Shown: positions 3,005-63,666 of the stretch, one piece after another
How positions within the stretch are numbered: position 1 is the first letter of the stretch
How the letters are laid out: each line of letters begins with the position of its first letter
IMG/VR virus record: IMGVR_UViG_3300001598_001736
Location: 1,297-65,296 of that record
Length of the DNA: 64,000 bases
Origin: a virus
Lineage: Duplodnaviria; Caudoviricetes
Direction: 5' to 3' (one strand)
Translations under genes and position numbers: made by a program
Notes under the pieces: model-generated
Told to the model about the DNA's origin: nothing
The model's database searches: none
The model's input: only the letters and a program-made list of their open reading frames with translations

Positions 3005-3406
3005 TTATTCTTTCTGCCAACCTGCCGGATAATCTGACGGAGACCATACATTGTTGTCAATTGTGCTCGTATAGGTTTCTCCGTTAAACATTACGGTATC
3101 ACCTTTCATATATGCATTTGTGGCGCTCGGCTGTTCCCAGTCGGGAATTACATTATCACTCGGGATAAGCACCTTTGCAAACAAGCTTGTTGCAACATCA
3201 GGTGTCCAGCTTTCCTGTGAAGTGTGAGCCTGAACAACACTATAAAGAATGTTGTTGTATCTCACCCTTTGTCCAAACTCATAAGCCTGTTCGGGTTTCC
3301 ATTGCGGGAAAAGATCAAGACCGGCAAGTGCGTCCTCTGTATCGAGTGCTGCGGCCGCTTTCTCAATAAGTGGTCTGAGTATTTGTGCCTTTTTGGTGAG
3401 TGTCAT
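3005..3406 (-). CDS. Carbohydrate-binding (CBM5/12, ChtBD3-like) repeat protein, tail-associated
   Basis: Two repeats W-x5-Y-x2-G-x2-V-x-Y/F-N-x3-Y (WKPEQAYEFGQRVRYNNILY; AYMKGDTVMFNGETY). Confidence 0.75.
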   Translation of the reverse strand: MTLTKKAQILRPLIEKAAAALDTEDALAGLDLFPQWKPEQAYEFGQRVRYNNILYSVVQAHTSQESWTPDVATSLFAKVLIPSDNVIPDWEQPSATNAYMKGDTVMFNGETYTSTIDNNVWSPSDYPAGWQKE

Positions 3407-3814
3407 TTATTCCACCCCCAAAAGAATTTTTGCCGCACGAAGTTCATCTTCCAATTCAACCACCTTTGCGGTCAGTTCAGCTCGGGTAAGGATTGTACTT
3501 TCATCGGTTCCCTCCGGGACTTCGGGACTTTCGTCCTCAGTATCTTCTTCCTCTGTATGACTGTTTATGATTTCCTCATATTCAGTTCCGTAAGTAGGAT
3601 AGGCGGTCAATTCGTTATCCAGGTCAAGAGATGGTTTTCCGTCAAGTTGATATACTGTTGAGCCATCTAATGATAAGATGCCCTGAGCATGAACCTCAGA
3701 GCATCTTACAAGAATATTGTTTTTTGTTTGCCGGTTAATAAAAACGGGATTTTCGTGGGCTTCTGCGGTTATAACCGTGTCACCCTCCATTATTTTCAGA
3801 TAGAGCATAGTCAT
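3407..3814 (-). CDS. Hypothetical tail-module protein
   Basis: Start MTMLYLK after GGAGG; overlaps RT 3' end and abuts the next gene; acidic linker and C-terminal coiled coil. Confidence 0.65.
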   Translation of the reverse strand: MTMLYLKIMEGDTVITAEAHENPVFINRQTKNNILVRCSEVHAQGILSLDGSTVYQLDGKPSLDLDNELTAYPTYGTEYEEIINSHTEEEDTEDESPEVPEGTDESTILTRAELTAKVVELEDELRAAKILLGVE

Positions 3815-4943
3815 AGCCCTCCCATAAATCAGATAGAAATAGTTTGTTATATAGGTCTGCCATGTTCTGTATTGTGTGATAGGCATTGAATTTCAAGGCG
3901 TAAGCTTTCCAACTCTGCCAAGTTGTATAGATATCGTTAAAGGCAATTCGCCCGTCCTTCCACATCTTGTGTAGCTTTTTCAGCTTAATGCGCATACGGG
4001 TAACACTCCGCTTATAAATCTTGCGTACCACCTTGCCGGTGTCAGTGAGATAAAAGCGGATTTTTAGCCAAGTAAAGCCGTGACTGAGCTTCACTATTTG
4101 CGTTTTCTTTTCATTCAGAGTAATGCCGAGAATTTTACAGATTTCTTTCATCTGTTCAAGGCAGTTCTGCAGATACTCTTTTGACTGATGAATAAGATAC
4201 CCATCATCCATATATCTACTATAGCCTTTTATTCTCAGTACCTCTTTGATGTAATGGTCTAAGCGATTTGCAGAGGCAAGAGCCAACACTTGACTTATTT
4301 GACTACCTAACCCCATACCAACATCACCGAAAGCGTCAACAAAGTGTTCTGTCAGTTTCAGTATTTTTTCATCTGAAAACTCATTGTGCAGAATGCCTTT
4401 AATTACTGCGTGAGAAACATTGTCAAAGAATTTTGAAAAATCAAATAACAGAATGTAGCCTTCCTGCCCATACTTTCTGTAATGCTTGTGCAGATGTTGA
4501 GTAAGGCGGCGAACAGCAAAGTCATATCCCTTATACTTAAGAGAGGCCCCATTGTCATATACAAAGGTTCTTCCGAGCATAGGAACAAGAGCGTTGTCAC
4601 ACAAACAACGCTGTACTACTCTTTCGCCTATGATTGTACTTCTTATGTGGCGGTGTTTTCCTCTTTCATAGATATCAAACTCATAAAATCCGGGGCTTTT
4701 GAATTTCCCGTTTTGGAGCTGATTATAGGTATGCAGTAAATTAAGCGGTGCTTGAGTAATATATTTTTGCACGCTTGATTTCCACGCCACACCTTTTCGG
4801 CAACACTTGTACGCCTCATAAAGATTCTGATAGCTGAAAACTGTGTTAAAATCATCATATTTTGAACAGCATTCAGCTTTTTTCTTTTGCCGAGCTTTAA
4901 CCCGGCGTTGGTACCTTGCCGCTCTTCTTTCTTCACTTGTCAT
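3780..4943 (-). CDS. DGR reverse transcriptase (387 aa)
   Basis: GMGLGSQISQ and RYMDD motifs; no maturase or endonuclease domain; adjacent TR and avd. Start taken at MTSEERR after AAGGAAGG. Confidence 0.95.
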   Translation of the reverse strand: MTSEERRAARYQRRVKARQKKKAECCSKYDDFNTVFSYQNLYEAYKCCRKGVAWKSSVQKYITQAPLNLLHTYNQLQNGKFKSPGFYEFDIYERGKHRHIRSTIIGERVVQRCLCDNALVPMLGRTFVYDNGASLKYKGYDFAVRRLTQHLHKHYRKYGQEGYILLFDFSKFFDNVSHAVIKGILHNEFSDEKILKLTEHFVDAFGDVGMGLGSQISQVLALASANRLDHYIKEVLRIKGYSRYMDDGYLIHQSKEYLQNCLEQMKEICKILGITLNEKKTQIVKLSHGFTWLKIRFYLTDTGKVVRKIYKRSVTRMRIKLKKLHKMWKDGRIAFNDIYTTWQSWKAYALKFNAYHTIQNMADLYNKLFLSDLWEGYDYALSENNGG

Positions 4944-5156
4944 AGTAAATACCTTCCTTGTCCCGTACCTCTGTCGGCAGGTTACATATAGAGGCATGTA
5001 TCAACGGGCATGAAATACGGGATAGCCTGCAACCCGTACCATGCAAGCAGCGTCCGCCCGGACACATCAGGACCTATATTTACCTTTCGGAAGGTTAAGT
5101 TCTCCTTCTCTCCACCTAAGTCTGATTTCGTTTCCTACTTTGTCTGCTCAGAGAGG

Positions 5157-5279
5157 AGCCGAACGCCACGCCATTTGAGTTGCTTGCGTTGTTGTTGTTA
5201 CTGTTGCCGTTGTTGTTAACATTACAGAAATTGGACGAGGACGAAGCCAACGGGGAGCGCAGCCACCAGTTAGATGCTG
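5157..5279 (-). repeat. DGR template repeat (TR)
   Basis: 123-bp gap-free match to 5925-6047 with 16 mismatches, all at TR adenines of the coding strand; 13 AAY codons in the VR frame. Confidence 0.97.
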
Positions 5280-5325
5280 CATCCTCCACAACGAAACAAT
5301 AAATACAGAGCTTAACCTATATAGA

Positions 5326-5730
5326 TTACAGTATATTCTTATACCGTTCTCTATCACTTTTCATTACCGCCTTTACAAGACGGATTTCGGTATCAATAAT
5401 ATCCATCCATACTCTCAGGGTTTCCATATCAATACCGAATATTTCCTGAGCTACTTCAAGCTGAGAAATCAAGCTTTGAAGTTCCGCATTTGCACGGATG
5501 AAGCAGTCACGCCTTATCTGGACTTCGTGCTGATTTGTCGGGTAAATGCTGTTTGCTCGCTTTACATCTTCATAAATACGGGTAGCGGAATTTGCAATGG
5601 GCTGAGACACATAAAATGTGTACCGCTTTGGAAAGTTGACACATTTCTGTATGGTGTAAATCTCAAGTTTCCTTGCAGTTGCTATAAATTCCATATCAGA
5701 AGTCGTTCGCTTGCTTTTTATTACTGACAT
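5326..5730 (-). CDS. avd: DGR accessory variability determinant (Avd-like four-helix bundle, 134 aa)
   Basis: Size, helical basic character (NFPKRYTFY...IYEDVKRANSIYP...RRDCFIRANAEL) and position between target and TR, as in BPP-1. Confidence 0.85.
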   Translation of the reverse strand: MSVIKSKRTTSDMEFIATARKLEIYTIQKCVNFPKRYTFYVSQPIANSATRIYEDVKRANSIYPTNQHEVQIRRDCFIRANAELQSLISQLEVAQEIFGIDMETLRVWMDIIDTEIRLVKAVMKSDRERYKNIL

Positions 5731-5823
5731 TTCATTACCCCTCTTTGCGTGTAGCTCATTTTTTATTATACATTTTCGGACTACACCATTCAAGTGAAAA
5801 GGTCAAAATTTTCACAAAATTTT

Positions 5824-5838
5824 CGCTGCTTCGCAGCG
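5824..5838 (-). other. Hairpin with GAA loop downstream of VR
   Basis: Minus strand cgctgc-GAA-gcagcg. Confidence 0.55.
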
Positions 5839-5870
5839 GATTTTATGGGGTTTTTCTGTACCGCTCCCAC

Positions 5871-5898
5871 TATCTCGCCCCACAAAGGGGGCGAGATA
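5871..5898 (-). other. DGR hairpin/cruciform downstream of VR
   Basis: Perfect 11-bp stem tatctcgcccc / ggggcgagata with 6-nt loop, 15 nt after the target stop codon. Confidence 0.8.
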
Positions 5899-5913
5899 TA
5901 CAGAGCCGGGAGA

Positions 5914-8900
5914 TTATATACAGAAGCCGAACGCCACGCCATAGGAGTTGCTTGCGGCGTTGCTGGCACTGCCGCCGAAGTTGTCAACAAAACAGAAATT
6001 GGACGAGGACGAAGCCAACGGGGAGCGCAGCCACCAGGAAGATGCTGAGCCTTCACCATTGTAGGTCTTCTTAATCCTCGATGTGTTACTGGTAAACAGT
6101 GCAAATGTTTTCTGTTCGGCATCAGCGTCTACTTCGTTTTTATACGGCACTTCGTTTGCACTAAATCCTACCTCAGCATACGAGAACAGGAATAATTTGT
6201 CACTCGTAGTGTCAGTAAGAGCAGATGTGTTGCCGATTGAAGATATCACGTCTACAGACTTAATCATAGACTGCCAGTAAACAGGTAAAGCGGACAGAAT
6301 TGTGCTGTTCAGCCATGTACGCATTTCGCACGATTTCCAACCACCGACATTTGTATTTGAAGCATTCATTCTGTGGTTCGCATTCATTATACCGAGCATA
6401 CCGAATGTACAACCGGCAAAGTTATTACTTCCCGAAATCTTGAAATGATTGAAGCCATAAAGCTGTAATACAATTTCGAGATCAGCAAACACATTGGTAT
6501 GCGGCACTATCTTGATTTTATCACCGACAGTAAAGTATGTCTTCGGATTGCCAAGTGTCATAATGCCGTAAAACTCCGCAAGCGAATACGCACTATCATC
6601 TTCGGGATCATCACTATACAGGTAATCGTATTCTGTTACCGCCGTGTCCGGAAGAACAGGAGTTACATATACTGCGTGGATATCCATATCAGAAACAACA
6701 TCATCTGCCGTTTCATCCCAACCCGTCCAAATGCCCGAGCCAGACAGACCTGCACCGGTATAATTGGAACTGCCATGTGCTATAACAGAGTTTGTCTGAA
6801 CGACCACAGTACCGTCATAATAACGGATTGTGTAGTATCTGTCTGATTCCGTAAACTGTGCCGTAACAATAGTATCTTGCAGAATATGATTGAATGCAAC
6901 ATCCCATCCGGAAAACTCGTAGGTTTTTGCAACCGTTGAGGCTTTTGTAGGCGTTGAAATAAGTTCAGCAGTAATAGGATTGACCGCAGCTGAATTACGC
7001 TTAATGGTTTGCGTGTTCAATACCGTTCCGTCATAGTTCTTGAAAGTGACGGTGTATGCAGGTACGATTGAGCCGTATGTTACTTCAAGCTCGGGGAAAG
7101 CGGTTTCAATAGCCGTCAATTCTGCTTGTGAGAGAGATCCGATATAACATTCGCCTGTTATCACGGGTGTATTTGAAGCCTCTCCGAGTGCATTGTAGCC
7201 CTTCCATTTTGAGGCAATGGCATAAAGTGCGTCACCTGTTGTAAAGGTCAAATCGGCTCCGAGATAACGGATATAGTGTGTTGCATTGCCGCCGTAGCTT
7301 ACAGCCTGTTCCAGCAATGTTGCCATTGCCGCATTGACTATTGAATTACAGTTCTCCACTCTGACGGTTGTGAGATTATTGCCGTTTGCCATACTAAACG
7401 ATTCAACATCGAGCAAATCTAAGGCAACTATTCCGCTACAAGCATTAAGATGTATATCTGTCAGCGGAGCGTATGCCGGAAGAGTGATAAGGCCTGCATT
7501 TGTTCCTCTGGTATCAACGGTTTCAAGCTCAACATTTGCCGAGAGGTCCAGCGGACGGGAGAAATTCACAAGGTTACGAATAGATAAATCTGTCAATATT
7601 GCAGTAGGTATATTCAATCCTGTATTTGCATCCCACGCCGTGTTTTCGCTATCTTCGGCACCAAGCATTACCTCCTGAAGCTTTGAAGCTCCGGCAGCGG
7701 CAAAGGTACTGTTATTGATACTGTCAATGGGCGTTATACTTTGAATAAGGCTTTCGGGCGTAACGTATATCGTTGCATTGGAGTGGACTGCCGTGTTCTG
7801 GAATGTGGCGGTACCGCCCGTAGCAATTTTCTTTGATACTCTTGTACCGTTATCTACTATGATTGTTACATAGGTTTTTGCATACGCTTTAACAATCAAA
7901 TCCTGAGTGGTACCGGCAGGAGCATTAGCACGGAATGTAATTGATTCCGAAGTGGAATAATATCCATACTTACCGTCCATATACTTTGCCTGATATGTGA
8001 CAAACTGATTACGCTGATACTTCTTTGAACCTTGAAGCCTTGCAAGATAGCTGTCATCATAGCTCTTGACCTCTGTACCTACGGTAACGCCCGTTGTCTT
8101 GTATGGGAGGATATATTTGTTATATGCATCCTCAGCCATAGCCGCATGAGGTCTGATTGACTGATAATTATTCCATTTATTTATGATAGTCTGTGCTGTC
8201 CACGCTCCTCTGCCTCGAAGCATAATATACATAGCAGCAAGCTCGGAAGCAAAAGCGGACTGGATATTCACCCAAATCGTGTTGCTGTCTGCATTGAACA
8301 GAGAACGGCTTCCTGCAGTATCTCCGAAGTCTGCACCGTAATCAGCAAGAGGAACGCCGTCATTATCACAACCAAGAATGGTATCATCATCATAGTTCTT
8401 GTTAATGTTCCAAAGGTATTTGCCGGCCGTTTCGTCCCATTCAAAAGAATAGAATGTGTTTTTGGAAACATTATCGAATGCGGCGTAAAACTCCATCCAT
8501 AAGAAATGGTACAGTAGAGAATCAATAGCGAAGTAATCTCCTACCTCCGCTTTGAATTTTGCCAGCCTGTATTGTGCGGTATCGTGTGTGTATTCAACAC
8601 CGCCGTATGTTACGGCTTCATCAAGAGCGGTTTCGGGGGTTGCCAAATCAACGGCAGTAGAAACGAGCCATTCAACAGTATCATCCCACGCACCAACTAC
8701 GGCGTCAAGGTCTGCGGCTTTAGGCTCAGCTCTCCATTCATAGTCCGTAGAAACAGTTGTACCGTTTACAGTCTGCCATTCTCCGTCCTCTGAATTATAT
8801 GTAGATGTTGCCTTAAACTGCTGTGCCGGAGTATCATTGCCCGACACTTCAATACAACCTTTGGCGTAATGTTCGCCCGTACCGTCCTGTCCGAACACAA

Positions 8901-11556
8901 CAAGATTTTTCTTGCTGTTGCAAATGTCACCCATTGCATATAACACGGTATCACCGGGCTGTAACTGCTGCGAGCCTATCCATATAGTGTTGGTGCTTGT
9001 GTTTGTGAAGAAGACAGCACAGGGTTTACCCTCGACGGTATCACGCACGCCTGCCGTTTCTCTTGCGGGTACGATATAAGGCTGATATTGATTATACATA
9101 TCTGCGGCACAGATATTATTGGCACACTCAGACGAAGCAACATTGACTTTGATATTCAGATAATTTACCGGGATAGCACCCTGTGATATAGCGTACTCTT
9201 TGCCGGAGTTCTTGAAATTGATGTCAAGGTTAAATGCTGACCGCCCGTAAGCAGCGGATGAAGTGCCCTGTACCTGAAATGTTGTATTGTTTTCAAGTTC
9301 CAGAAGTTCTGCACCGTCCTGAATTGTTACAACAGCATTTACCGGGTCCTTTTTACCTGTAGTCATACGGTCAGCGGAGATTTTGACTATTGTTAGGTCA
9401 GGACACGCTTCATGGAGTGTTGACGGCGTAATGTTTCCATTATCATCATATATATCGTTTGCCTTATAACGCTCAATTTTCTCTGCAGTTGTTGCACCGA
9501 GAGATATATAGTTTTGGAGCATTTCACGGTAAGACAGTGCCGTGTTATAAACACGGATTGCATAAATCCATACATCGCAGTGGTCTGAACCTATTACAAG
9601 ATTGTTTTCGTCCTGTACAAGCGTGCCGGATGTGTAGGTCTGCACCAGTGACGGAATGCCGTCAAGCCATACGGTCATTACTCTGTGATCGTTGACTTCT
9701 TCCACATTTACAGACAAGTCAATTCTGCTTTCCTCACAGTAGCGGAAAAGCTGACCTGTTGTGTTGTTAAGTCTTAATTCTCCTTCATTTGCTCTGAGAA
9801 TTATGCCCTTTGAGGCTCCGTTATTGAGTTCAGACATTGCAACCGCATCATAAGTATCACTGTTTGCGATTTTGAACGAAACATCAACTGTTTTTCCGTT
9901 TCCGTCTGAATCTTCAAACAAAGCACGGGGAAGCGTTACATGATTACCCTTTTTTATGACAAAGGCTGCTGTGCCGTTTTCATCTGCGGCAAATCCGCCA
10001 TTTATCCAGTCGAACCCATCACTGAAAGAGAGGTCTCCAAAGTCAGCTCTGTCGCTGTCAGTATTTGCGTGACCTGTTGGATTGAGAAGATAGCGGAGAT
10101 TATCGCCAGTTACCATACCAATATCATACTGGCTTTGTGTTATTACCAGTGTCATTGTATCGGAGCTGTCTCCGCAGGTTAATGTTACTGTTTTATTTCC
10201 GTAATCCTGCGGAGCATAAGATATTGACTGTAATGTTCTGCCGGCTATCAATGAACGGGCAGATTCTGAGCCTATCTGTATTGCACAGTTTGCAGTTTCA
10301 TTATCCGGGTCAAACACGAAAAACTGTATAGTGGTATTATCATACTGTACTGTATTCTGAGATGATTTTGCAAATGCAACTATAGGCTCATCAGCACCAT
10401 AGCCCCATATTGCAACAAAGCTGATAGGGTCAGTTTCGTCATCTTCATCCGTTCCGGACACCATAACTGCTGTTATTGTATTTATCCCGGTTTCAAACAT
10501 AGCCTTATCAATCTCAAATGTTACGGCTCTGCTGCCAGTGACCTCTCTTTCAAAATCTTCTTCGCCGATTGAGAGGATAACGGTGTTTGTTGTCCTTGCC
10601 TGTGCTGATACATTTACAACTATATACACATTCTCGTTTGCTGTATAAAGCGTAATGGGCTGTATCGCAGAACCCCAAGCAAGAGAAAAAGCAGAGGAAG
10701 TAATATTCCACTGCCTGTTAAGTGTTGCACCGCTCTCTGAGGATATAACCGCTTTAACGGTGCTTGTATCTGATTGTCTTAAATGGTCTTTTGCATTGAA
10801 AGTGAATGATGTTCCACTCGCTTTATCGGCAACAGTTGATTTAAGGACTCCGTCAACATACCACAAAACAGATATGTTGGTATCGTCTGTTGAAGTTGCC
10901 GTAAATCCGAAAATAGCGTCAGCTCCGTTACGAACAGAAGAAGGTTTCAGAACATTGGCAAGGGTTATTGCTGCCGATGTTGTACCGCCACCGCCGCCAC
11001 CGCCCGAAAACGGCCCGAGAGGTCCTGCGGCAACTTCGTCACCGGCCATTAAATAAAGATAGCCATCATCAACATAGGCATCATCTATTTTTCCGGCAAG
11101 AGCCTCTTTCATTTCCTCGACATCATTTCCTAAGGCACTCAATTCTTCAAGTAATTCATTTGCTTCCTGAAGCGCTGCTGACGCTGCCTGTGCCGCTGTA
11201 TTTGCCGAAGAAGCGGAAGCGGCAGCTGATGAAGCGGCAGACTGTGCCGCCGTAGCTTTTGTATTTGCCGTGTTTGCTGTTGATAGTGCTGTGTCTGCTT
11301 TTCCGTTCGCAGTATTCGCCGTTGCAACGGCTGATTCGGCTATTTCAACAGCACTTTCGGCTGTTTCAGCGGCTTCTTCTGCCGCTTCCTGTGCGGCTTC
11401 TGCGGCATCAGCTGCTCGGCTTGATTCAGCTGCCACCGCTTTTTTAAGTGTTTTTACCTTTATGTTATATGTTTCATCGTTTGAGGAAACAAGCAGTAAA
11501 TCATCATCAAGGGCTTCTTCAACCGTTGCAAATTCATTTATGAGCTTGTCAGCCAT
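5914..11556 (-). CDS. 1880-aa tail fibre/receptor-binding protein, DGR target (C-terminal DUF6273-like CLec domain)
   Basis: Last large gene of the tail module; carries VR. Ala-rich coiled coil, poly-Gly hinge, LamG-like, CotH-like, LRR-like and InlB-B-like segments recognised by motif. Confidence 0.85.
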   Translation of the reverse strand: MADKLINEFATVEEALDDDLLLVSSNDETYNIKVKTLKKAVAAESSRAADAAEAAQEAAEEAAETAESAVEIAESAVATANTANGKADTALSTANTANTKATAAQSAASSAAASASSANTAAQAASAALQEANELLEELSALGNDVEEMKEALAGKIDDAYVDDGYLYLMAGDEVAAGPLGPFSGGGGGGGTTSAAITLANVLKPSSVRNGADAIFGFTATSTDDTNISVLWYVDGVLKSTVADKASGTSFTFNAKDHLRQSDTSTVKAVISSESGATLNRQWNITSSAFSLAWGSAIQPITLYTANENVYIVVNVSAQARTTNTVILSIGEEDFEREVTGSRAVTFEIDKAMFETGINTITAVMVSGTDEDDETDPISFVAIWGYGADEPIVAFAKSSQNTVQYDNTTIQFFVFDPDNETANCAIQIGSESARSLIAGRTLQSISYAPQDYGNKTVTLTCGDSSDTMTLVITQSQYDIGMVTGDNLRYLLNPTGHANTDSDRADFGDLSFSDGFDWINGGFAADENGTAAFVIKKGNHVTLPRALFEDSDGNGKTVDVSFKIANSDTYDAVAMSELNNGASKGIILRANEGELRLNNTTGQLFRYCEESRIDLSVNVEEVNDHRVMTVWLDGIPSLVQTYTSGTLVQDENNLVIGSDHCDVWIYAIRVYNTALSYREMLQNYISLGATTAEKIERYKANDIYDDNGNITPSTLHEACPDLTIVKISADRMTTGKKDPVNAVVTIQDGAELLELENNTTFQVQGTSSAAYGRSAFNLDINFKNSGKEYAISQGAIPVNYLNIKVNVASSECANNICAADMYNQYQPYIVPARETAGVRDTVEGKPCAVFFTNTSTNTIWIGSQQLQPGDTVLYAMGDICNSKKNLVVFGQDGTGEHYAKGCIEVSGNDTPAQQFKATSTYNSEDGEWQTVNGTTVSTDYEWRAEPKAADLDAVVGAWDDTVEWLVSTAVDLATPETALDEAVTYGGVEYTHDTAQYRLAKFKAEVGDYFAIDSLLYHFLWMEFYAAFDNVSKNTFYSFEWDETAGKYLWNINKNYDDDTILGCDNDGVPLADYGADFGDTAGSRSLFNADSNTIWVNIQSAFASELAAMYIMLRGRGAWTAQTIINKWNNYQSIRPHAAMAEDAYNKYILPYKTTGVTVGTEVKSYDDSYLARLQGSKKYQRNQFVTYQAKYMDGKYGYYSTSESITFRANAPAGTTQDLIVKAYAKTYVTIIVDNGTRVSKKIATGGTATFQNTAVHSNATIYVTPESLIQSITPIDSINNSTFAAAGASKLQEVMLGAEDSENTAWDANTGLNIPTAILTDLSIRNLVNFSRPLDLSANVELETVDTRGTNAGLITLPAYAPLTDIHLNACSGIVALDLLDVESFSMANGNNLTTVRVENCNSIVNAAMATLLEQAVSYGGNATHYIRYLGADLTFTTGDALYAIASKWKGYNALGEASNTPVITGECYIGSLSQAELTAIETAFPELEVTYGSIVPAYTVTFKNYDGTVLNTQTIKRNSAAVNPITAELISTPTKASTVAKTYEFSGWDVAFNHILQDTIVTAQFTESDRYYTIRYYDGTVVVQTNSVIAHGSSNYTGAGLSGSGIWTGWDETADDVVSDMDIHAVYVTPVLPDTAVTEYDYLYSDDPEDDSAYSLAEFYGIMTLGNPKTYFTVGDKIKIVPHTNVFADLEIVLQLYGFNHFKISGSNNFAGCTFGMLGIMNANHRMNASNTNVGGWKSCEMRTWLNSTILSALPVYWQSMIKSVDVISSIGNTSALTDTTSDKLFLFSYAEVGFSANEVPYKNEVDADAEQKTFALFTSNTSRIKKTYNGEGSASSWWLRSPLASSSSNFCFVDNFGGSASNAASNSYGVAFGFCI
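5925..6047 (-). repeat. DGR variable repeat (VR) at target C-terminus
   Basis: Encodes ASSWWLRSPLASSSSNFCFVDNFGGSASNAASNSYGVAFG; TR in the same frame reads ASNWWLRSPLASSSSNFCNVNNNGNSNNNNASNSNGVAFG. Confidence 0.97.
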
Positions 11557-11569
11557 AAATTACACCCCC

Positions 11570-11776
11570 TTAATTTGTGCTTGTAAGCTTATCATTAAGC
11601 CAAGCATTTATATCATCGATTGCAGAAAGTATGTTGCTGTCCATAACAATACAGGTTTCCCTCTGATTTGATTTCAGAAGGTTTCCGTAACTGTCAATAA
11701 CAGAAAAAGTGTAGGACACTCGCATACCCTCGGCGGTCTGGTGAGCAGTAAAGCTTGTAATTATCTTAGTTTCCAT
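11570..11776 (-). CDS. Small hypothetical tail protein
   Basis: 68 aa; overlaps the upstream tail gene; RBS gaggtag. Confidence 0.6.
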   Translation of the reverse strand: METKIITSFTAHQTAEGMRVSYTFSVIDSYGNLLKSNQRETCIVMDSNILSAIDDINAWLNDKLTSTN

Positions 11777-14297
11777 TGTTTTCTACCTCTTTTTCATAGT
11801 TTGAGAGATAATCCATTGCTGAATCGTCAATATTATCTGTCGGTCTTACATTGGGAATGCTTTTTGAATCCAAATACACATCACTATAACCCTTCTGCTT
11901 ACAGTGTATCTGCCAGTCAAAGGTTGTTCCGGGCTGACCGTAAACAGTAAATTGCATATTGCCTTTTTCGGTGTATTCAATTCTGCCGGGACTGGTTTGG
12001 GTAGTCATTACATAAAAATCGGAATGACTGTCTATGGTTTCAATGAATTTCGGATTGAAAACAATTTCACAAATTCCCGATTCATCAATAACCCCGGAAC
12101 CCATATCAGAGAACAGAGCGGCAGCACTTTCCACGGCGTTTAATGCAACCGAGCCATAGTGCTCCGTGTCAACAACTCTGTTTTTTGCACCAATAACCAC
12201 CAGGTCATTATTGATATAAACGCCATTCTGAAAACAAGCAGTGCTTTCATCGCCCGTCATAAACATCCGTGTATAGTAGCTTCCCTGAGATAACTGAATA
12301 TAGTTTTTGAAAGTGGCGTAACTATCAACTTCAATGTGCGAATCAAAATAGGCATATCCATTAACTTCAATATTGTTATCAAAAGTTGCCATATCCCAAA
12401 AATAAGATTCGCACCATGCCACAAATTCTGCAGGGATTGACGGTAGGAGACCATTATTAAAGCAAAAATACCAACCTCCTTCTGTACCAAAGGTGATACC
12501 GTAAGCATTTGTACCGAAGTGAACAACATCATAAAACTTACCTGATCCGCCCTGTGATTGGGTTACACCGGTAATAGACCCAACTTTGGAATTGTTCTTG
12601 TAAAAAACAAGTTCCCCGTTTGACATTTCAGTACCAACGCCACTGCTGTTTATGCTTTTCATTGTTCCGGAAGCAGAAAAGTTTGTAGCTATAACATCTC
12701 CGTTTTTTGACAATTTGAAGTTAGTGCTGTCAATACTGAGACGGTTTGCTCGTATATCAATGCCACCGCTCTCCATGGAGAGTTCACTTGAAACATTACC
12801 CTTACTCACTTTAAGCAATAAACTTTCAGCAGTTTGTTCAAGCAAGGAAGACAGCTCTTCTTCTTCATCCTGTGCTCGGGAAATTTCAGATGCAAGGCGT
12901 TCAGCTGTCAACTGAATCTGTGCTGACAATGTACCTTCTGCCTGTGTAGCTCTTGTTATCTCCGCAAGAAGGGAATCAGCAGTTTGCTGGAGCTGAACCC
13001 TTGTATATTCTCTCAGCGTTCTTACCGAGGTTATAAGGTTGAGAAGCTTTTTCTTTTCGGATAGATACGGATATTCTTTGCTTAATTCGTCACTGTTCGG
13101 TGCACTTATATTAGCATGAAAGCCAATATCAAGAGTAAGCATTGCCGAAAGCATAACGCTTGTTATATCTCCTATCTTAATCTGGTCTCCCAGTTCGGTA
13201 GCAGGATCATAACAAGCGTTTTTGGCTGTATATGGCATATACACCAAGCCCTCATACTGTTCAAACAAATCATTACATATCTGTTGAGCAATATACGGAT
13301 TGTTCTCAAATTTCAGGACGGCTCCGTCTTCGGTGCCGGCAGTATAGTGGGTGCTGTTTTCGTCAGTAATATCCACGCCTGTTATTACTACCTTTTTACC
13401 GTGATTTAGTTCACCGCAAACAATGGGTATGTTGATACATCCGTTCACAGCATCAACGCTTCCGTCTTCTGCCCATATAAGATAATATCCGTCAGTTGTA
13501 ACGAGCCTTGCACCTGTTTCATCTGTTATGTAATGTGTTACCGGATAAGATGTGTCCGGTGTAGTTCCTGCCGGAGCAGGCATTACAGCATTATACTCTG
13601 TTTGAAGCTTATGACATAAAATATCGTTTTCAACTGTTTTGAGCCGTTCATAATCACTACTTAAAATATGGAATGTTTCATCCGGTGCAGTAATAAGAGG
13701 TACGAGCCGCAGCAGATTGTCTTCTGTTATTATCCAGTTGCCGCCGTGACAGGCACCTATATACCCCAAAACCTGTATCATAGATTCGGTTTCGGGGTAT
13801 GTCACCATGTAAGCCGCACCAGTTCGTATTTTGGTACGAGGATCTATACCGACACCCAACCGTTCTGCAATATTCTCAACAATTTCAATCATTGTTTTCG
13901 GCCAATCGTTTTCACCGTCATAGCCGGTAATGAATGTTTGGTTGCCTTTCAGCATTGCATCGTAACAAGAGATTGTGGTGAGACCTTCATAACTTGTATC
14001 ACGGTAGTCAATAAAAAAGGTACCAAATTCTTTCCACTCACTGACAGTTTTACCGTTTGTCAAACGCCCCATTACAACAACGGAGCTTGACTCCGGTATA
14101 TCGTCATCGGTGAGAATAGATACCTGCATAGACGCAGCGGAACAGTTACCAACTGACATAGGAGAAGGCATTAAAGGCCTACTGATTACAGGGGCTGATA
14201 TTTTGTTATAATCTGTGCCGGCAATTCTCAGCTTTGTTTCAAGCATGAAATTCCCACGAGCAGCCAGCTTTTCCCATACTTTGCTTCGCTGTCTCAT
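11766..14297 (-). CDS. Tail tip / baseplate hub-spike protein
   Basis: Follows TMP and Dit; central coiled coil (QLQQTADSLLAEITRA); C-terminal GAKNRVVDTEHYG...ESAAALFSDMGSG typical of Firmicutes tail proteins. Confidence 0.75.
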   Translation of the reverse strand: MRQRSKVWEKLAARGNFMLETKLRIAGTDYNKISAPVISRPLMPSPMSVGNCSAASMQVSILTDDDIPESSSVVVMGRLTNGKTVSEWKEFGTFFIDYRDTSYEGLTTISCYDAMLKGNQTFITGYDGENDWPKTMIEIVENIAERLGVGIDPRTKIRTGAAYMVTYPETESMIQVLGYIGACHGGNWIITEDNLLRLVPLITAPDETFHILSSDYERLKTVENDILCHKLQTEYNAVMPAPAGTTPDTSYPVTHYITDETGARLVTTDGYYLIWAEDGSVDAVNGCINIPIVCGELNHGKKVVITGVDITDENSTHYTAGTEDGAVLKFENNPYIAQQICNDLFEQYEGLVYMPYTAKNACYDPATELGDQIKIGDITSVMLSAMLTLDIGFHANISAPNSDELSKEYPYLSEKKKLLNLITSVRTLREYTRVQLQQTADSLLAEITRATQAEGTLSAQIQLTAERLASEISRAQDEEEELSSLLEQTAESLLLKVSKGNVSSELSMESGGIDIRANRLSIDSTNFKLSKNGDVIATNFSASGTMKSINSSGVGTEMSNGELVFYKNNSKVGSITGVTQSQGGSGKFYDVVHFGTNAYGITFGTEGGWYFCFNNGLLPSIPAEFVAWCESYFWDMATFDNNIEVNGYAYFDSHIEVDSYATFKNYIQLSQGSYYTRMFMTGDESTACFQNGVYINNDLVVIGAKNRVVDTEHYGSVALNAVESAAALFSDMGSGVIDESGICEIVFNPKFIETIDSHSDFYVMTTQTSPGRIEYTEKGNMQFTVYGQPGTTFDWQIHCKQKGYSDVYLDSKSIPNVRPTDNIDDSAMDYLSNYEKEVENNGN

Positions 14298-14685: not shown

Positions 14686-17600
14686 CTAATCCAGTAACGG
14701 TGATGTACCGAGCATTTTTGTACGGCGGTTTATTTCTGCAATAACACCGCTTGCTATGCCCGTTATATCTCCGTTGCATTTACCGCCACCGTATATGCGG
14801 ATAGCTTCAACTATTTCGCTTGCTGCTTCTGCAACAACTTTCACTACTGTAGCGGAAAGTTCGTCATTTGAAGCCGTAATAGCGTCATAATCGCCACCGT
14901 TTGGTTTGTTGGTATTATCTGATACCCTGTACGGAACAAGGCCGTTCTGAGCCACTACAGGCATTGAGAATGTAACGCTGTCTGCTATTGACTGTAAGCG
15001 ATTCATAAGGTCACTGAATCCATTGATAACGGTATCAGAAAAATCAATCAATGAGCTTTCCAAACCACTGTCGGCAGATATTGTACTGAATGAGAAATTA
15101 CCGTTTTTCATTTCTGCTGATATAGCGTCTGCCATATCGGAAACAGTACCAAGAACAGAAGATTCCGAGGCTTCAATACCTTCGCCAACACCAAGGCCTA
15201 TGTTCAAGCCGACAGTATCACGGAAAAGCCGTGACGGTGAATGAATACCGAGTGCTTCCTTTGCTTCGTTCAAAAGCTTTGTAGCAAGATTCTTTACCGT
15301 ATCTTTCAGCCAATTCCAGCTGTTTTCAAGACCATTCTTAATACCAGAACCAATGTTAGAGCCCAGGCCGAACCAATCCCTGCCTGTAATATCAGCGGCA
15401 ATTTCGCTTAACCGTTGAGCAGAGGTTGTTTTTATATTATTCAGAATGTCGCCTAATGAGCTTTTAACATTATTCCAAGTAGAAATAAGGTTTGTTTTTG
15501 TATTATTACTTTTATCTGAGGCGGAAGAATTTATGCTTTCAAAGCTCTGGGAGGCTGATGTTTTAATACTATTCAGCTTTTCGGATAAGTCGTTTTTGAT
15601 TTCTCCCCATTTCTGAGCGGAATTTGATTTTATATTCTCTAATTTTGAAGATACTGTAGATCTGATACCCTCAAATTTTTCCGAAGCAGAAGATTTGATA
15701 CTGTTCCACTTTTCAGTTAAATCTGTTTTTATGCTATTCCATTTTGTGCTTGCATCGGTTTTCATTTCTGTCCATCGTTCGCTGATAGTAGTTTTGAGAG
15801 CAGATAGTTTTTCCGAGAAGAAGCCTGTAATATTTGTCCAAGAGCCATTGATACCGTTCCACAAACCGTCTATGATGAATCCGCCCTGTTCAGCCATTTT
15901 GGTTGACGGTGAATGGATTCCAAAAGCATTTTTGAAGCCTTCAATAAACGGATTCCAAATGTGTTCAACAATCCAGTTACCGACATTTTTTAAGGCATCT
16001 ATTACGCCCTGACAGAAACCATCCCAAGTGAGCTTGCCCTGTTCATTCATATAGCCACTGAAATATTCTTTTACAGATTCCCAAGCGGCTTTTAGCGCTT
16101 TCCATATTTCCTGTCCAAGACCGTAAATAAGTGCCGAAGCACCGCCTATGATGCTTCCGAGCAGATGAAAAGCTTTTTCAACTACGCCTTTCCAATCAAA
16201 GGTTGTTACAAAATTAACAAGACTTTGCCACAAGTTTTTACCTAAGGTTTGCCAGTCCACATTTTCTATGAACCCTATTGCCAAATCCAACCGCCCTTTT
16301 ATGCTGTCACTTAATGTTCCTGCTGCCTCCTTTGCAATTTCGGGAAGCTTTTTAACAATAGCGTTTATTCCATTTGCTATGCTTCTTCCGACACCGGCAA
16401 AATCAAAAGCGTTGACTGCACTATGAATAGAACGAAGTGCAACCAAGACACCCGTTGCAAGAGTTAAACCGAGCTTCGACCAGTCAATTCCTGTTATGGA
16501 ACTGCTCAGCCCAGTTGAAATACCAGCAGTTAAAGCAGGCCAATCTATCTCTGTAATAAGCAGATAAACGGTGTTTATTAGGGTATTGATTCCCTCAGCG
16601 AAAGTATCTCCTATAAGTGTCCAGTCTATGGTATATATAAGAGAATTAAAAGCCTCTGCGAAAGCTTTTATGTACTTTGTGATAACACCGCCAACATTGT
16701 CCCAGCTTATAAAATCGTGTATCTTTTGGAATACTTCATTGATTTTTTCGCCGATAATTCTTCCGATTTCTGCATAGTCGCCATTTCGGAACGCTTCTTT
16801 AAGGCGGTTGACAAAATCGGTTATAGCCGATTCAATAGGTACTTCCTCAAACATATCCGCAGTGGTTAAGCCTGTACCGAGTTCATCTGCTATATCGTCA
16901 GCGATATTGTCTGGATCGACATCATTATTATCATTATTGGATTTTGATGAATCGCTTAAAATATTAAGGTCATCAAATCCAGCAAGTTGATTTTGTGCTT
17001 TTTCGGCTTCTTTTGCTGCCTTCTTTGTCTCTTTAGCGACTTTTTTTGTATTGTCGGCGGCTTTTTTGGCCGAATTACTTGTTTTGTCAAGTGAGGCTGC
17101 ATAATCCTGCTGTACTGCTTTTGCCACAGTGAATGACTTTGCACCCGTAAGGGCTGCAACAAATTTTCCTACCCAGGTAACCGCTTGGATAAGATAATCT
17201 ATGAGCCGTTTAAGAATAGGTGTAACCACCGTTAAAATCGGTGCAAATGCAGTTGCAAAAGAGTTTTTTAGCTGCGTGAGGCTTGACATAAGCACAGACA
17301 TATCAGCGTTTACTTCGGCAGAATACTGTGCAAGATTTTGTATGCCTTCTTTGCAACCTGATATAATGCTTGAAATGAAAGTACGCATTAACCGGCGTTT
17401 GAGCATGCTCCACAATCCGGTTAATTTGGATGTGAGCATACTTATTGCACCTTCGGCTCCACCTGATTCTTTTTTCATATTTCTCAGGTGTGATATACCG
17501 CTTTTTATTCCACTTACAAGCTTTTTAAAGCCGGAGACGCCGACCTGTCCTATTTTGGATAACCCGTTTTTGACTGATACTGCCACGGATCCGATTGTTT

Positions 17601-18261
17601 TCAGACCTTTTACAGCTGCATTTGCTCCCATTTTTGCAAGACTTTTTACAACTCCTGCGGCAACACTCTGTAACCTTGTCATAGGGCTTTTTGCTGTATC
17701 TGCTTCTGCTTTTAATTCAGCAAGCCTCGCTTTTGCCGCAGATAGGCTACTTTCAAGCTGAGCATATTCGGCAGTGTTCACGCCTAAATCAAAAGCTGTT
17801 CCATTGTTTTCCATAGCGGACTGTTCGGCTTTATAATGGGATAGTTCTTTTCTTGTAAGGTCAATATCGTACTGTAAGCTTTTCCAAGCCTGAGAGGATT
17901 CTTTTACTCCCATGCTTTTCATTTTAGCCTGCCTATCCTCAAGCTTTTCAAGCTTTTTATCGGCTTCACTTATTTTACTTGTCAAAAACTGATAATCTTC
18001 TGTGGGTGTTTTGGTGTTGCCAACCTTTTCGAGCTCACTTTCAAGCTCCAATATATTGCTTTCAAGGTCGTTTATTTCCGAATCATAAGCGGATATGGTG
18101 CTTGTGTTGTTTGTAAAAACATCTTCAAAACAACGTCCGAATGCACTGACTGTACTTTTAAGGGAATTTATGGCAGATTGTAATCTCTTACTGCCAGCGT
18201 CAAAACCTTTGTTGTCTAACTCGGTATCAATAATAATTGAACCGTCAGACTGTCCGGCCAT
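14686..18261 (-). CDS. Tape measure protein
   Basis: 1191 aa, helical, 11-residue W/F periodicity, two FGIHSPS/LGIHSPS motifs. Confidence 0.92.
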   Translation of the reverse strand: MAGQSDGSIIIDTELDNKGFDAGSKRLQSAINSLKSTVSAFGRCFEDVFTNNTSTISAYDSEINDLESNILELESELEKVGNTKTPTEDYQFLTSKISEADKKLEKLEDRQAKMKSMGVKESSQAWKSLQYDIDLTRKELSHYKAEQSAMENNGTAFDLGVNTAEYAQLESSLSAAKARLAELKAEADTAKSPMTRLQSVAAGVVKSLAKMGANAAVKGLKTIGSVAVSVKNGLSKIGQVGVSGFKKLVSGIKSGISHLRNMKKESGGAEGAISMLTSKLTGLWSMLKRRLMRTFISSIISGCKEGIQNLAQYSAEVNADMSVLMSSLTQLKNSFATAFAPILTVVTPILKRLIDYLIQAVTWVGKFVAALTGAKSFTVAKAVQQDYAASLDKTSNSAKKAADNTKKVAKETKKAAKEAEKAQNQLAGFDDLNILSDSSKSNNDNNDVDPDNIADDIADELGTGLTTADMFEEVPIESAITDFVNRLKEAFRNGDYAEIGRIIGEKINEVFQKIHDFISWDNVGGVITKYIKAFAEAFNSLIYTIDWTLIGDTFAEGINTLINTVYLLITEIDWPALTAGISTGLSSSITGIDWSKLGLTLATGVLVALRSIHSAVNAFDFAGVGRSIANGINAIVKKLPEIAKEAAGTLSDSIKGRLDLAIGFIENVDWQTLGKNLWQSLVNFVTTFDWKGVVEKAFHLLGSIIGGASALIYGLGQEIWKALKAAWESVKEYFSGYMNEQGKLTWDGFCQGVIDALKNVGNWIVEHIWNPFIEGFKNAFGIHSPSTKMAEQGGFIIDGLWNGINGSWTNITGFFSEKLSALKTTISERWTEMKTDASTKWNSIKTDLTEKWNSIKSSASEKFEGIRSTVSSKLENIKSNSAQKWGEIKNDLSEKLNSIKTSASQSFESINSSASDKSNNTKTNLISTWNNVKSSLGDILNNIKTTSAQRLSEIAADITGRDWFGLGSNIGSGIKNGLENSWNWLKDTVKNLATKLLNEAKEALGIHSPSRLFRDTVGLNIGLGVGEGIEASESSVLGTVSDMADAISAEMKNGNFSFSTISADSGLESSLIDFSDTVINGFSDLMNRLQSIADSVTFSMPVVAQNGLVPYRVSDNTNKPNGGDYDAITASNDELSATVVKVVAEAASEIVEAIRIYGGGKCNGDITGIASGVIAEINRRTKMLGTSPLLD

Positions 18262-23093: not shown

Positions 23094-23756
23094 TTACTGA
23101 TTGTCAAAATTGATTTCCATGCTCGGATTTTCGTTCTTAGCCTTCATCATTTCAGCAAGACTTTTGGCTTTGCCGCCCACAGGCTGTTTTCCGGTGGGAA
23201 GAACGATGGCAGGTGTGCCGGGTTTAGGATCATCATCAGCCTTAAATGCATCGGGGTCATCTGTCTTATATTTGGCAACATAGTCATCGAAGCCCAACAG
23301 AGTATCTCCGTCCATGGTAAAGCCCTTTTCGATAGCGTCCTGCACAAAGGCTCTCTTTGCACCATTTGATGAGAATTTAAGACCGCTTGCTTTCTCTTTT
23401 ACAGCAAACTCGTATGCCTGCTTGGAGAGCTTGCTTTCATAGCTCTGCTTGTCAGCATCGTATTTTGTCTGTAAATCAGAAAGTGACTGCTGAACAGCTC
23501 CAAGCTTTCCTGCGTCCGCCTGTGCATCTGCAAGCTTTGTCTTGAGATCGTTCATATCTGCATCACGCTGTGTAATCTGTCCCTGCAAATCGGTAATCTG
23601 CTGATTGAGCGTGCCGGTTTTATTGTCGTATTTATCACGGCTGACATATTCACCCTGCGACAAATCGACAATGTTAAGTTTTTCGGCTTTTACCTTTTCT
23701 GCAAGCTGCTCAAAGGTTATAGCCTCGCCGTTGAATAAGATTTTCAGAAATTCCAT
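23094..23756 (-). CDS. Scaffold protein (Phage_GP20-like)
   Basis: GEYVSRDKYD, long coiled coil, acidic/Pro-rich end; precedes the capsid gene. Confidence 0.8.
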   Translation of the reverse strand: MEFLKILFNGEAITFEQLAEKVKAEKLNIVDLSQGEYVSRDKYDNKTGTLNQQITDLQGQITQRDADMNDLKTKLADAQADAGKLGAVQQSLSDLQTKYDADKQSYESKLSKQAYEFAVKEKASGLKFSSNGAKRAFVQDAIEKGFTMDGDTLLGFDDYVAKYKTDDPDAFKADDDPKPGTPAIVLPTGKQPVGGKAKSLAEMMKAKNENPSMEINFDNQ

Positions 23757-23900
23757 AATTTTCTCCAGTTTTCCACCATAGATTTCTTTTATATTCCCGA
23801 AGCCACTCTCCGGGTGTGGTGTCCGTGCATTTATCTCCCGACACGGTAGGGTATTTTGTTTTTATATCAAGTCTCACGACCTAATAACTATTTGGGCATA

Positions 23901-63436: not shown

Positions 63437-63525
63437 GGAGAGATACCGAAGTGGTCATAACGGAACGGTCTTGAAAACCGTCGTACCTCCGGGTACCGTG
63501 GGTTCGAATCCCACTCTCTCCGCCA
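63437..63525 (+). tRNA. tRNA-Ser(TGA)
   Basis: GGAGAGA acceptor stem, anticodon loop CTTGAAA, long variable arm, GTTCGAATC, encoded CCA. Confidence 0.97.
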
Positions 63526-63575: not shown

Positions 63576-63666
63576 GGAGAAGTACTCAAGTTGGTGACGA
63601 GGCGCCCCTGCTAAGGGCGTAGGTCGGGTAACCGGCGCGAGAGTTCGAGTCTCTCCTTCTCCGCCA
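63576..63666 (+). tRNA. tRNA-Ser(GCT)
   Basis: GGAGAAG acceptor stem, anticodon loop CTGCTAA, long variable arm, GTTCGAGTC, encoded CCA. Confidence 0.97.

Follow-up and report, generated by a model that had tools for sequence, protein, structure and literature searches.

A complete diversity-generating retroelement of the BPP-1 type, with an RT-2 spacer RNA, in the tail region of a gut-type phage

Layout of the locus

The window analyzed here, a stretch of 64,000 nucleotides from the IMG/VR virus record IMGVR_UViG_3300001598_001736, contains a diversity-generating retroelement (DGR) whose parts follow one another on a single strand in the order target, avd, template repeat (TR) and reverse transcriptase (RT), based on the open reading frames and the Pfam/PHROG annotation of the window. 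The genes of the locus are as follows.

3780-6047, minus strand: DGR cassette, RT through variable repeat (VR), with target, avd, TR and RT all on the minus strand
5914-11556, minus strand: DGR target gene, an 1880-aa ORF with a coiled-coil, tail-fibre-like N-terminus and a DUF6273 / C-type-lectin-like C-terminal domain
5326-5730, minus strand: avd, 134 aa from ATG 5730, pI 9.1, a predicted four-helix bundle
3780-4943, minus strand: DGR reverse transcriptase, 387 aa (RVT_1, 6e-15; phrog_1423, 1e-80)
3407-3808, minus strand: conserved ORF of 133 aa that overlaps the 3' end of the RT gene, a flanking gene, putatively outside the DGR
3005-3406, minus strand: flanking CBM_5_12 protein, 133 aa, in synteny with the DGR in relatives

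A preliminary description of this DNA had recognized the single-strand order and a BPP-1-type architecture. All parts indeed lie on the minus strand, and each defining part that was tested (target, VR, IMH-like end, hairpin, Avd, TR, spacer RNA and RT) is present. The locus is thus a complete and well-formed DGR, of a kind that is already described and very common. Only one TR and one VR were found across the whole 65-kb genome. By Pfam and PHROG matches, the tape measure, followed by a tail protein, precedes the target upstream, and lysis genes lie downstream.

The 133-aa ORF beyond the RT gene had been taken for a tail gene overlapped by the RT. The overlap is real; if the ORF starts where its homologues do, it amounts to about 29 nt, and the figure of 107 nt requires the longest version of the ORF. 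The label of tail gene is unproven because the ORF has no family match in Pfam or PHROG. Its homologue directly follows the RT gene in 37 of 71 relatives, and in the relatives L074 and L075 the ORF is called as a gene of 133-135 aa, with an RT overlap of 14 nt.

Template and variable repeats

5157-5279, minus strand: TR, with 32 adenines
5925-6047, minus strand: VR, encoding residues 1838-1878 of the 1880 aa of the target, with 8 nt from the VR end to the stop codon
5925-5940, minus strand: GC-rich VR 3' end (GGCGTGGCGTTCGGCT), common to the TR and IMH-like
5871-5898, minus strand: post-VR hairpin, 11-bp GC-rich stem and 6-nt loop, 26 nt past the VR end, no T-run
5824-5838, minus strand: second hairpin, terminator-like on both strands (consensus scan only)
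5765-5793, minus strand: TTGAAT-17-TATAAT, resembling a promoter and situated 35 nt before avd, 10/12 consensus matches

The TR and VR align without gaps over 123 nt at an offset of 768, and a repeat search extended the pair to 126 nt (5154-5279 and 5922-6047, 87%). The 16 mismatches are confined to adenines of the TR (T on the plus strand, A on the coding minus strand), exactly as had been described. Half of the adenines (16 of 32) are altered in the VR and none of the 91 non-adenine positions differs; given 26% A, the chance of 16 of 16 mismatches at adenines is about 4e-10. A codon count in the target frame bore out the 13 AAY codons reported for the TR. Most adenines of the TR (28 of 32), and 15 of the 16 TR-VR changes, are at codon positions 1 or 2.

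Homology between the repeats stops just past the GC-rich VR end, which is therefore an IMH-like element; it is identical in L074 and L075. A strong hairpin follows the target stop codon in all 29 loci that were folded, and its stems show compensatory changes. By analogy with the element described by Guo 2011 (PMC3240598), the post-VR hairpin is a candidate target-recognition hairpin or cruciform. A role for it as an intrinsic terminator was rejected, since in most copies the stem is not followed by a T-run. The claim that the cassette is woven into the late operon holds only in part: the interval between target and avd has a hairpin resembling a terminator and a site resembling a promoter, both of them consensus matches only. 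The promoter-like site is weak because the number of such sites in the region equals the chance expectation.

Reverse transcriptase and Avd

The RT frame is intact, as described before, but its start, formerly set at 4997, is most likely ATG 4943, which has the ribosome-binding site AAGGAAGG and gives a 387-aa product matching the recorded protein of the contig. The best match of the RT in the PDB is the BPP-1 bRT (8ub7_A, phmmer 2e-14), followed by a group II RT at 7e-9. The RT is identical to bRT at the residues aligned to R74, D138, G182, Q187, D215 and D216, and carries Leu in place of I181; the motifs LGSQISQ and YMDD fit the patterns [I/L]GxxxSQ and YxDD. Judged by its sequence, the RT keeps the catalytic and adenine-mutagenesis residues of bRT.

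Sub-threshold NCBIfam matches of the RT to group II, retron and DRT models might suggest that a retron, a group II intron or a defence RT happens to lie beside a chance repeat. These scores are all far under the cut-offs, however, and the assignment of the RT to any of the three was rejected on that ground. The best solved match is bRT, the adenine-only pattern would hardly arise by chance, and Avd, hairpin and spacer RNA all stand in canonical order, so that a non-DGR origin of the locus is scarcely credible.

The avd frame is also intact, and its start is ATG 5730 (134 aa). The product matches phrog_3206, 'Avd protein of DGR', at 4e-13, whereas the NCBIfam Avd model is hit below threshold (E 1e-3; 19 bits against a cut-off of 80). 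A comparison of folds was needed because sequence searches of the PDB, with the single sequence and with a 19-sequence profile, returned only spurious myosin matches. The structure model (pLDDT 88) has four helices, and its best Foldseek matches are 2gsc and 2rld of the S23/IVP family, 8ub7_B and the Avd 4dwl, with TM scores of 0.6-0.78 (0.72 for 8ub7_B).

The target protein and its variable tip

Residues 38-153 of the target match the tail fibre family phrog_4242, and residues 1730-1878 form the DUF6273 / C-type-lectin-like domain (Pfam DUF6273, 3e-21). The protein is otherwise a mosaic, in which Listeria-Bacteroides repeats occur together with regions that weakly resemble LamG and CotH; the match to Laminin_G_3 (E 1e-5, 26.2 bits) is slightly below the cut-off, and that to CotH has an E-value of 0.075. 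The C-terminal structure was modelled with a pLDDT of 91. The model of the tip compares best with the DUF6273 domain of 9qa6 (Z 16), then with C-type lectin domains at Z 5-7; most of the other listed fold matches are likewise C-type lectin-like domains, among them Lcl (Z 7.1) and a known DGR protein, TvpA (2y3c, Z 6.8). Foldseek gave one clear match, and the series of C-type lectins emerged with the wider VIA-align search. Individual Z-scores of 5-7 being middling, it is the agreement among the matches that argues for a C-type-lectin fold of the modelled tip. A WWLRS motif and VR residues in the C-terminal strands of the CLec-like fold are both present.

VR variation would alter the putative ligand-binding face at the tip of the target, and most likely change receptor specificity. 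The position and the fold of the target point to a receptor-binding role, and thereby to tropism switching by the cassette. An active DGR could also diversify a virion-surface adhesin for another ligand (mucus, glycans or a secondary receptor) rather than the host-receptor fibre, with no classical tropism switching. Such an adhesin would agree with the mosaic make-up of the 1880-aa protein described above, and the function of DUF6273 targets has been left open in publications (PMC11792537, PMC10743442); a separate protein, the CBM_5_12 protein closely downstream, also matches tail-fibre PHROGs. The target, however, comes straight after the tape measure and tail protein, the usual slot of a receptor-binding protein; its N-terminus matches a tail-fibre PHROG; and its position is conserved in relatives. 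We therefore regard the adhesin as possible but unlikely, and favour a receptor-binding protein.

RNA structures around the template repeat

4938-5152, minus strand: structured spacer RNA between TR and RT, Rfam RF03077 (RT-2 RNA)
5308-5318, minus strand: 5' arm of an 11-bp long-range helix, between avd (8 nt past its stop codon) and the TR (about 29 nt further downstream)
5092-5102, minus strand: 3' arm of the same helix, followed by a short stem-loop and then UAAAUAU
5151-5155, minus strand: CUCUC, immediately 3' of the TR/VR homology, pairing with GAGAG at 5108-5112 in a candidate template:primer duplex
5108-5112, minus strand: GAGAG, candidate partner in the primer duplex, followed by a nearly invariant AAGGAG

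The spacer matches RF03077 over its full length (1-222) with 123.8 bits, three times the gathering score. The RT-2 RNA was found at the equivalent position in 10 of 10 relatives and in Roseburia phage Shimadzu, so that all 12 DGRs examined carry it between their TR and RT. The two arms of the long-range helix are 95.6% paired, with compensatory change in 8 of the 11 pairs; none of 500 shuffles equalled it, and slid controls reached at most 44%. The helix clamps the TR in the manner of the "cPRT stop" of BPP-1. In the short duplex of CUCUC and GAGAG, 96.9% of cells are paired and three of the five pairs show compensatory change, although this 5-bp candidate sits in a purine/pyrimidine tract. 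Another register of the duplex between TR end and spacer was weaker (76.5% of cells paired against 96.9%).

RT-2, an orphan Rfam family, is probably the RNA scaffold of the DGRs of a very large clade of Clostridia phages (more than 3,600 homologous RTs in metagenomes), in which the TR is held between the clamp helix, proven by covariation, and the short duplex of TR end and spacer, next to the nearly invariant AAGGAG that would supply the self-priming nucleotide.

Activity of the retroelement

No near-identical phage was found by megablast of 3400-12000 against deposited phages, and no near-identical genome by searches of viral and metagenome contigs for exact matches to a 37-mer and a 26-mer of the invariant TR/VR portion, or by exact-protein look-ups of Avd and RT, in collections that may omit entries identical or very close to this genome. 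The nearest relatives by RT, at 90% identity (L077, a Clostridia MAG) and 87% (L074 and L075), are uninformative on the activity of the present copy because their TRs differ. Closely related pairs of loci within the family, by contrast, show natural variation: L028 and L029, and likewise L037 and L038, have identical flanks and TR, and their VRs differ at 17 and 13 positions, respectively, all of them TR adenines. The VR is polymorphic and the TR invariant also in L056/L059 and in the L066 group. Relatives with the same flanks thus differ only in the VR at TR adenines, and the family is active in nature.

The present copy, to judge from its sequence, is apparently in working order and presumably active. 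It could instead be dormant or a fossil, with a VR that was diversified formerly and a cassette now subtly defective or unexpressed, and the own promoter of avd-RT is indeed a consensus match only. Against this, the reading frames and catalytic residues are all intact, the 91 non-adenine positions show no drift since the last homing, the RNA elements all fit the family consensus, and close family members vary in their VRs. A defunct element is therefore quite improbable, and an active DGR remains the preferred reading.

Comparison with other DGRs

The locus resembles the DGR of BPP-1 (mtd-avd-TR-brt) in gene order, in the A-specific differences from TR to VR, in the C-terminal placing of the VR within a tip of C-type-lectin fold, in a basic, helical Avd, and in the RT residues for catalysis and adenine mutagenesis. 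A GC-rich VR end with a hairpin downstream (PMC3240598) is also common to both, as are a structured spacer, a duplex that clamps the TR and a short duplex between TR end and spacer (bioRxiv 10.1101/2023.10.23.563531). However, the RT is only remotely homologous to bRT (phmmer E 2e-14); the motif between TR and RT is Rfam RT-2, in place of the RT-10 motif of BPP-1 (Weinberg 2017); the avd stop codon is passed before the 5' arm of the clamp is reached, an arm that in BPP-1 is inside avd; the target has 1880 aa and a DUF6273 tip, compared with 381 aa for Mtd; the stem of the hairpin is 11 bp long and its loop 6 nt; and the host is presumably a Gram-positive member of the Clostridia. Weinberg et al. 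2017 tied only RT-10 to DGRs and offered speculation alone for the other RT motifs, RT-2 (RF03077) among them.

Among described DGRs, 'category f1' of Wu et al. 2018 comprises CLec3 VRs, targets that are about 2000 aa long and match CotH and Laminin_G_3 weakly, and the architecture B1, avd-TR-RT. The present locus agrees in target length, mixed weak Laminin_G_3/CotH matches, phage context and avd-TR-RT order, the CLec3 class being assigned by description only. In the Faecalibacterium phages Lelie, CP11, Roos and Pioen (PMC11792537), the VR is at the C-terminus of DUF6273, as here. Roseburia phage Shimadzu has a DUF6273-target DGR and the closest RT among deposited phages (48% identity), all of which are below 60%. 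The targets of these phages are mostly much smaller or paired, in contrast to the one giant target here. In short, the DGR belongs to a type already described, in the giant CLec3 targets of f1 and the DUF6273 targets of Faecalibacterium phages, and very common in gut metagenomes.

Proposed mechanism and significance

The following scheme takes its order of steps from homology with BPP-1, as it does the self-priming, the part played by the hairpin and the purpose of the whole. First, avd, TR, spacer and RT would be transcribed, and the TR RNA would then be gripped between the long-range helix of 11 bp and the folded RT-2 spacer. A complex of RT and Avd would prime itself from the spacer beside the short TR-end:spacer duplex and copy the TR into cDNA with misreading of adenines. 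The cDNA would replace the VR in the last part of the target gene, with the GC-rich end of the VR and the hairpin beyond it as guides, and variation would result at up to 13 Asn (AAY) and two Ser (AGY) codons of the C-type-lectin-like tip. Very probably, then, this is a canonical and structurally intact DGR that works by such a mechanism in a temperate phage, siphovirus-like, whose host would be an uncultured member of the Clostridia.

Targeted hypermutation in gut phages is most commonly of this kind, which the element illustrates cleanly and in full; it can serve as a reference annotation for the 65-kb phage and many related contigs. Its additions to published work include the backing of the TR-clamping helix and the candidate primer duplex by covariation, beyond prediction. 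The general picture of DGR function is unchanged by these additions. The model of reverse transcription based on BPP-1, however, becomes testable in a distant, Gram-positive phage system; if the proposed scaffold is correct, RT-2 would gain a function and would provide a second, independent RNA architecture in which to test self-priming.

Repeat pair and coding genes

Based on a recount of the TR/VR alignment, the codons and the repeat copies, the figures in the preliminary description are correct: the template repeat (TR) and variable repeat (VR) align over 123 nt without gaps, all 16 mismatches lie at TR adenines (16 of 32), and the TR, read in the target frame, has 13 AAY codons. The recount also shows two AGY codons in this frame. 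None of the other 91 positions differs, a pattern with a chance probability of about 4e-10 given the base composition, and a repeat search extends the similarity to 126 nt. The changes from TR to VR (six A>T, six A>G and four A>C) include every substitution type, and 15 of the 16 fall in codon positions 1 or 2. Only one TR and one VR exist in the whole genome. All parts of a diversity-generating retroelement (DGR) were found, as had been proposed; the cassette is a true and complete DGR of an already known type, and its interest is modest.

Features of the DGR region (window positions)
14686-18261, minus: tape measure gene, upstream of the DGR
5914-11556, minus: target gene, 1880 aa, with DUF6273 and the VR
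5925-6047, minus: VR
5871-5898, minus: post-VR hairpin, 11-bp GC stem without a T-run, 26 nt past the VR end
5326-5730, minus: avd, 134 aa, PHROG match
5308-5318 with 5092-5102, minus: clamp helix, 11 bp, from a 26-locus alignment
5157-5279, minus: TR
between TR and RT, minus: spacer RNA, 213 nt, full-length Rfam RT-2 match
3780-4943, minus: reverse transcriptase (RT) gene, 387 aa, product on record for the contig

The RT most likely starts at ATG 4943, downstream of a AAGGAAGG ribosome-binding site; an alternative longer ORF, starting at 4997, would extend into the spacer RNA. [quoted passage not shown] In the 8ub7_A alignment, which yields the motifs LGSQISQ and YMDD, it is identical to bRT opposite R74, D138, G182, Q187, D215 and D216, and has Leu opposite I181. 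Avd (pI 9.1) matches the PHROG family 'Avd protein of DGR' at 4e-13 and an NCBIfam family weakly; it is predicted to form a four-helix bundle (pLDDT 88). A Foldseek search with this model placed two S23/IVP-family bundles (2gsc and 2rld) and Avd chains of BPP-1 (8ub7_B and 4dwl) at the top.

Pfam DUF6273 spans residues 1730-1878 of the target, and the VR lies within it at 1838-1878. The predicted structure of the last 200 residues (pLDDT 91, with 29 homologues as input) resembles the DUF6273 domain of a Thomasclavelia IgA peptidase (Z 16); lower-ranked matches are mostly C-type lectin-like domains (Z 5-7), among them TvpA, itself a DGR protein, and the C-terminal domain of Legionella Lcl. In Faecalibacterium phages and 'tentaclin' phages, VRs at the C-terminal end of DUF6273 tips have been described (PMC11792537, PMC10743442). 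Segment scans of the target gave weak matches to Laminin_G_3 (E 1e-5) and CotH (E 0.075). By description, the target fits 'category f1' of Wu et al., that is, proteins of about 2000 aa with a CLec3 VR and weak CotH and Laminin_G_3 matches that are thought to be phage proteins, and their B1 architecture (avd-TR-RT) is the arrangement found here (PMC5758913).

Genome setting

The source IMG/VR virus record has 65,296 bases and is estimated by CheckV to be complete; the window covers nearly all of it. All DGR-region genes discussed are on the minus strand; a small PHROG protein and an 843-aa tail protein are also encoded upstream of the target, and a conserved 133-aa ORF, a CBM_5_12 protein, a 99-aa ORF and a holin-CHAP-SH3 ORF lie downstream of the RT. 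In 37 of 71 related loci a homologue of the 133-aa ORF comes directly after the RT; the overlap with the RT is about 29 nt in the window and 14 nt in the related loci L074 and L075. The earlier proposal that the cassette is woven into the late operon is supported in part: a terminator-like hairpin and a promoter-like site (10/12), both of which are only consensus matches, lie between the target and avd.

The holin-CHAP-SH3 ORF (288 aa; 1652-2518, minus) combines Phage_holin_1 (aa 3-81), CHAP (109-208) and SH3_3 (239-286). Holin (85-86 aa) and lysin (582 aa with GH25, or 488 aa with CHAP) are encoded by separate genes in the relatives L074 and L075. A Rfam GP20-a RNA (66 bits; 23759-23855, minus) is directly upstream of a head-module ORF (23094-23756), and two long tRNA matches (86-88 nt; 63437-63522 and 63576-63663, plus) at the window end may represent tRNA genes of the phage or indicate where it attaches to the host chromosome (an attachment site).

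Relatives and activity

A prophage of the MAG 'Clostridia bacterium INTA.CYC.012' gives the best genome match (RT 90% identical), and nearly all others are gut and rumen Clostridia. The protein collection contains more than 3,600 RT homologues; in deposited phages, all are less than 60% identical, the nearest being that of Roseburia phage Shimadzu (48%).

No near-identical genomes for a VR comparison were found among deposited phages or viral and metagenome contigs. The intact parts and the zero non-adenine TR/VR divergence give indirect support for activity of this copy. The order VR-avd-TR-RT with an adenine-specific repeat pair exists in more than 30 of 71 related viral loci. In two pairs of contigs of the family (L028/L029 and L037/L038), flanks, TR and RT are identical and the VR alone differs, with 17 of 17 and 13 of 13 differences, respectively, at TR-adenine positions; L056/L059 and the L066 group gave similar results.

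Six loci (L066, L067, L068, L070, L071 and L072; RT 49-53% identical) form a sub-clade that keeps the order avd-TR-RT-2-RT, acting on a small target (about 337-367 aa). Direct repeats of about 200-220 nt that show no adenine bias occur in runs upstream, and probably represent repeated Ig-like domains of a neighbouring gene. In other relatives, a Twister-P5 ribozyme (65-69 bits) lies some 4-5 kb downstream of the RT, with a type II hammerhead as well in L004; neither was found in the window. The avd gene starts with ATG in the window (5728-5730) and with an aligned TTG in the four nearest relatives, a codon that may point to low Avd translation in those phages.

Features in related loci
L004, 13891-13944 and 14426-14490; L010, 7051-7105: ribozyme matches (Twister-P5; in L004 also type II hammerhead)
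L074, 9209; L075, 9388; L077 (Clostridia MAG locus), 2206; L004, 8246: aligned avd TTG starts

Nucleic acid elements around the repeats

The VR ends 3' in a GC-rich stretch common to the TR, and because homology is lost right after it, this end appears IMH-like. A hairpin comparable to that past the VR was recognized 3' of the target stop in 29 of 29 loci examined, with compensatory variation of the stems (e.g. CTCGCC/GGCGAG in the window and CTGGCC/GGCCAG in L074). By analogy, it would correspond to the hairpin/cruciform that BPP-1 retrohoming needs, as shown by Guo et al. (PMC3240598).

The spacer matches Rfam RT-2 (RF03077) at 123.8 bits (gathering score 40), and RT-2 immediately follows the TR in every one of the ten tested relatives, as it also does in a cultured phage, Roseburia phage Shimadzu. 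Weinberg et al. tied RT-10 alone to a DGR and speculated on the other RT motifs (PMC5737381). One arm of the clamp helix (5308-5318) lies right past the avd stop codon and the other (5092-5102) inside the spacer. In the 26-locus alignment, 95.6% of cells are paired, with compensatory change in eight of 11 pairs; none of 500 shuffles equalled it, and slid controls reached at most 44%. A short stem-loop and then UAAAUAU follow, the same pattern as the 'cPRT stop' that Handa et al. described for BPP-1 and predicted for Bacillota DGRs (bioRxiv 10.1101/2023.10.23.563531). In addition, CUCUC, directly 3' of the TR/VR homology, pairs with GAGAG in the spacer (96.9% of cells, three compensatory pairs); because of its position, this 5-bp duplex is a candidate template:primer duplex. 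A shifted register paired more weakly. The most useful results added here are that RT-2 RNA can be assigned to the DGR spacer of this clade and that covariation supports the RNA helices flanking the TR.
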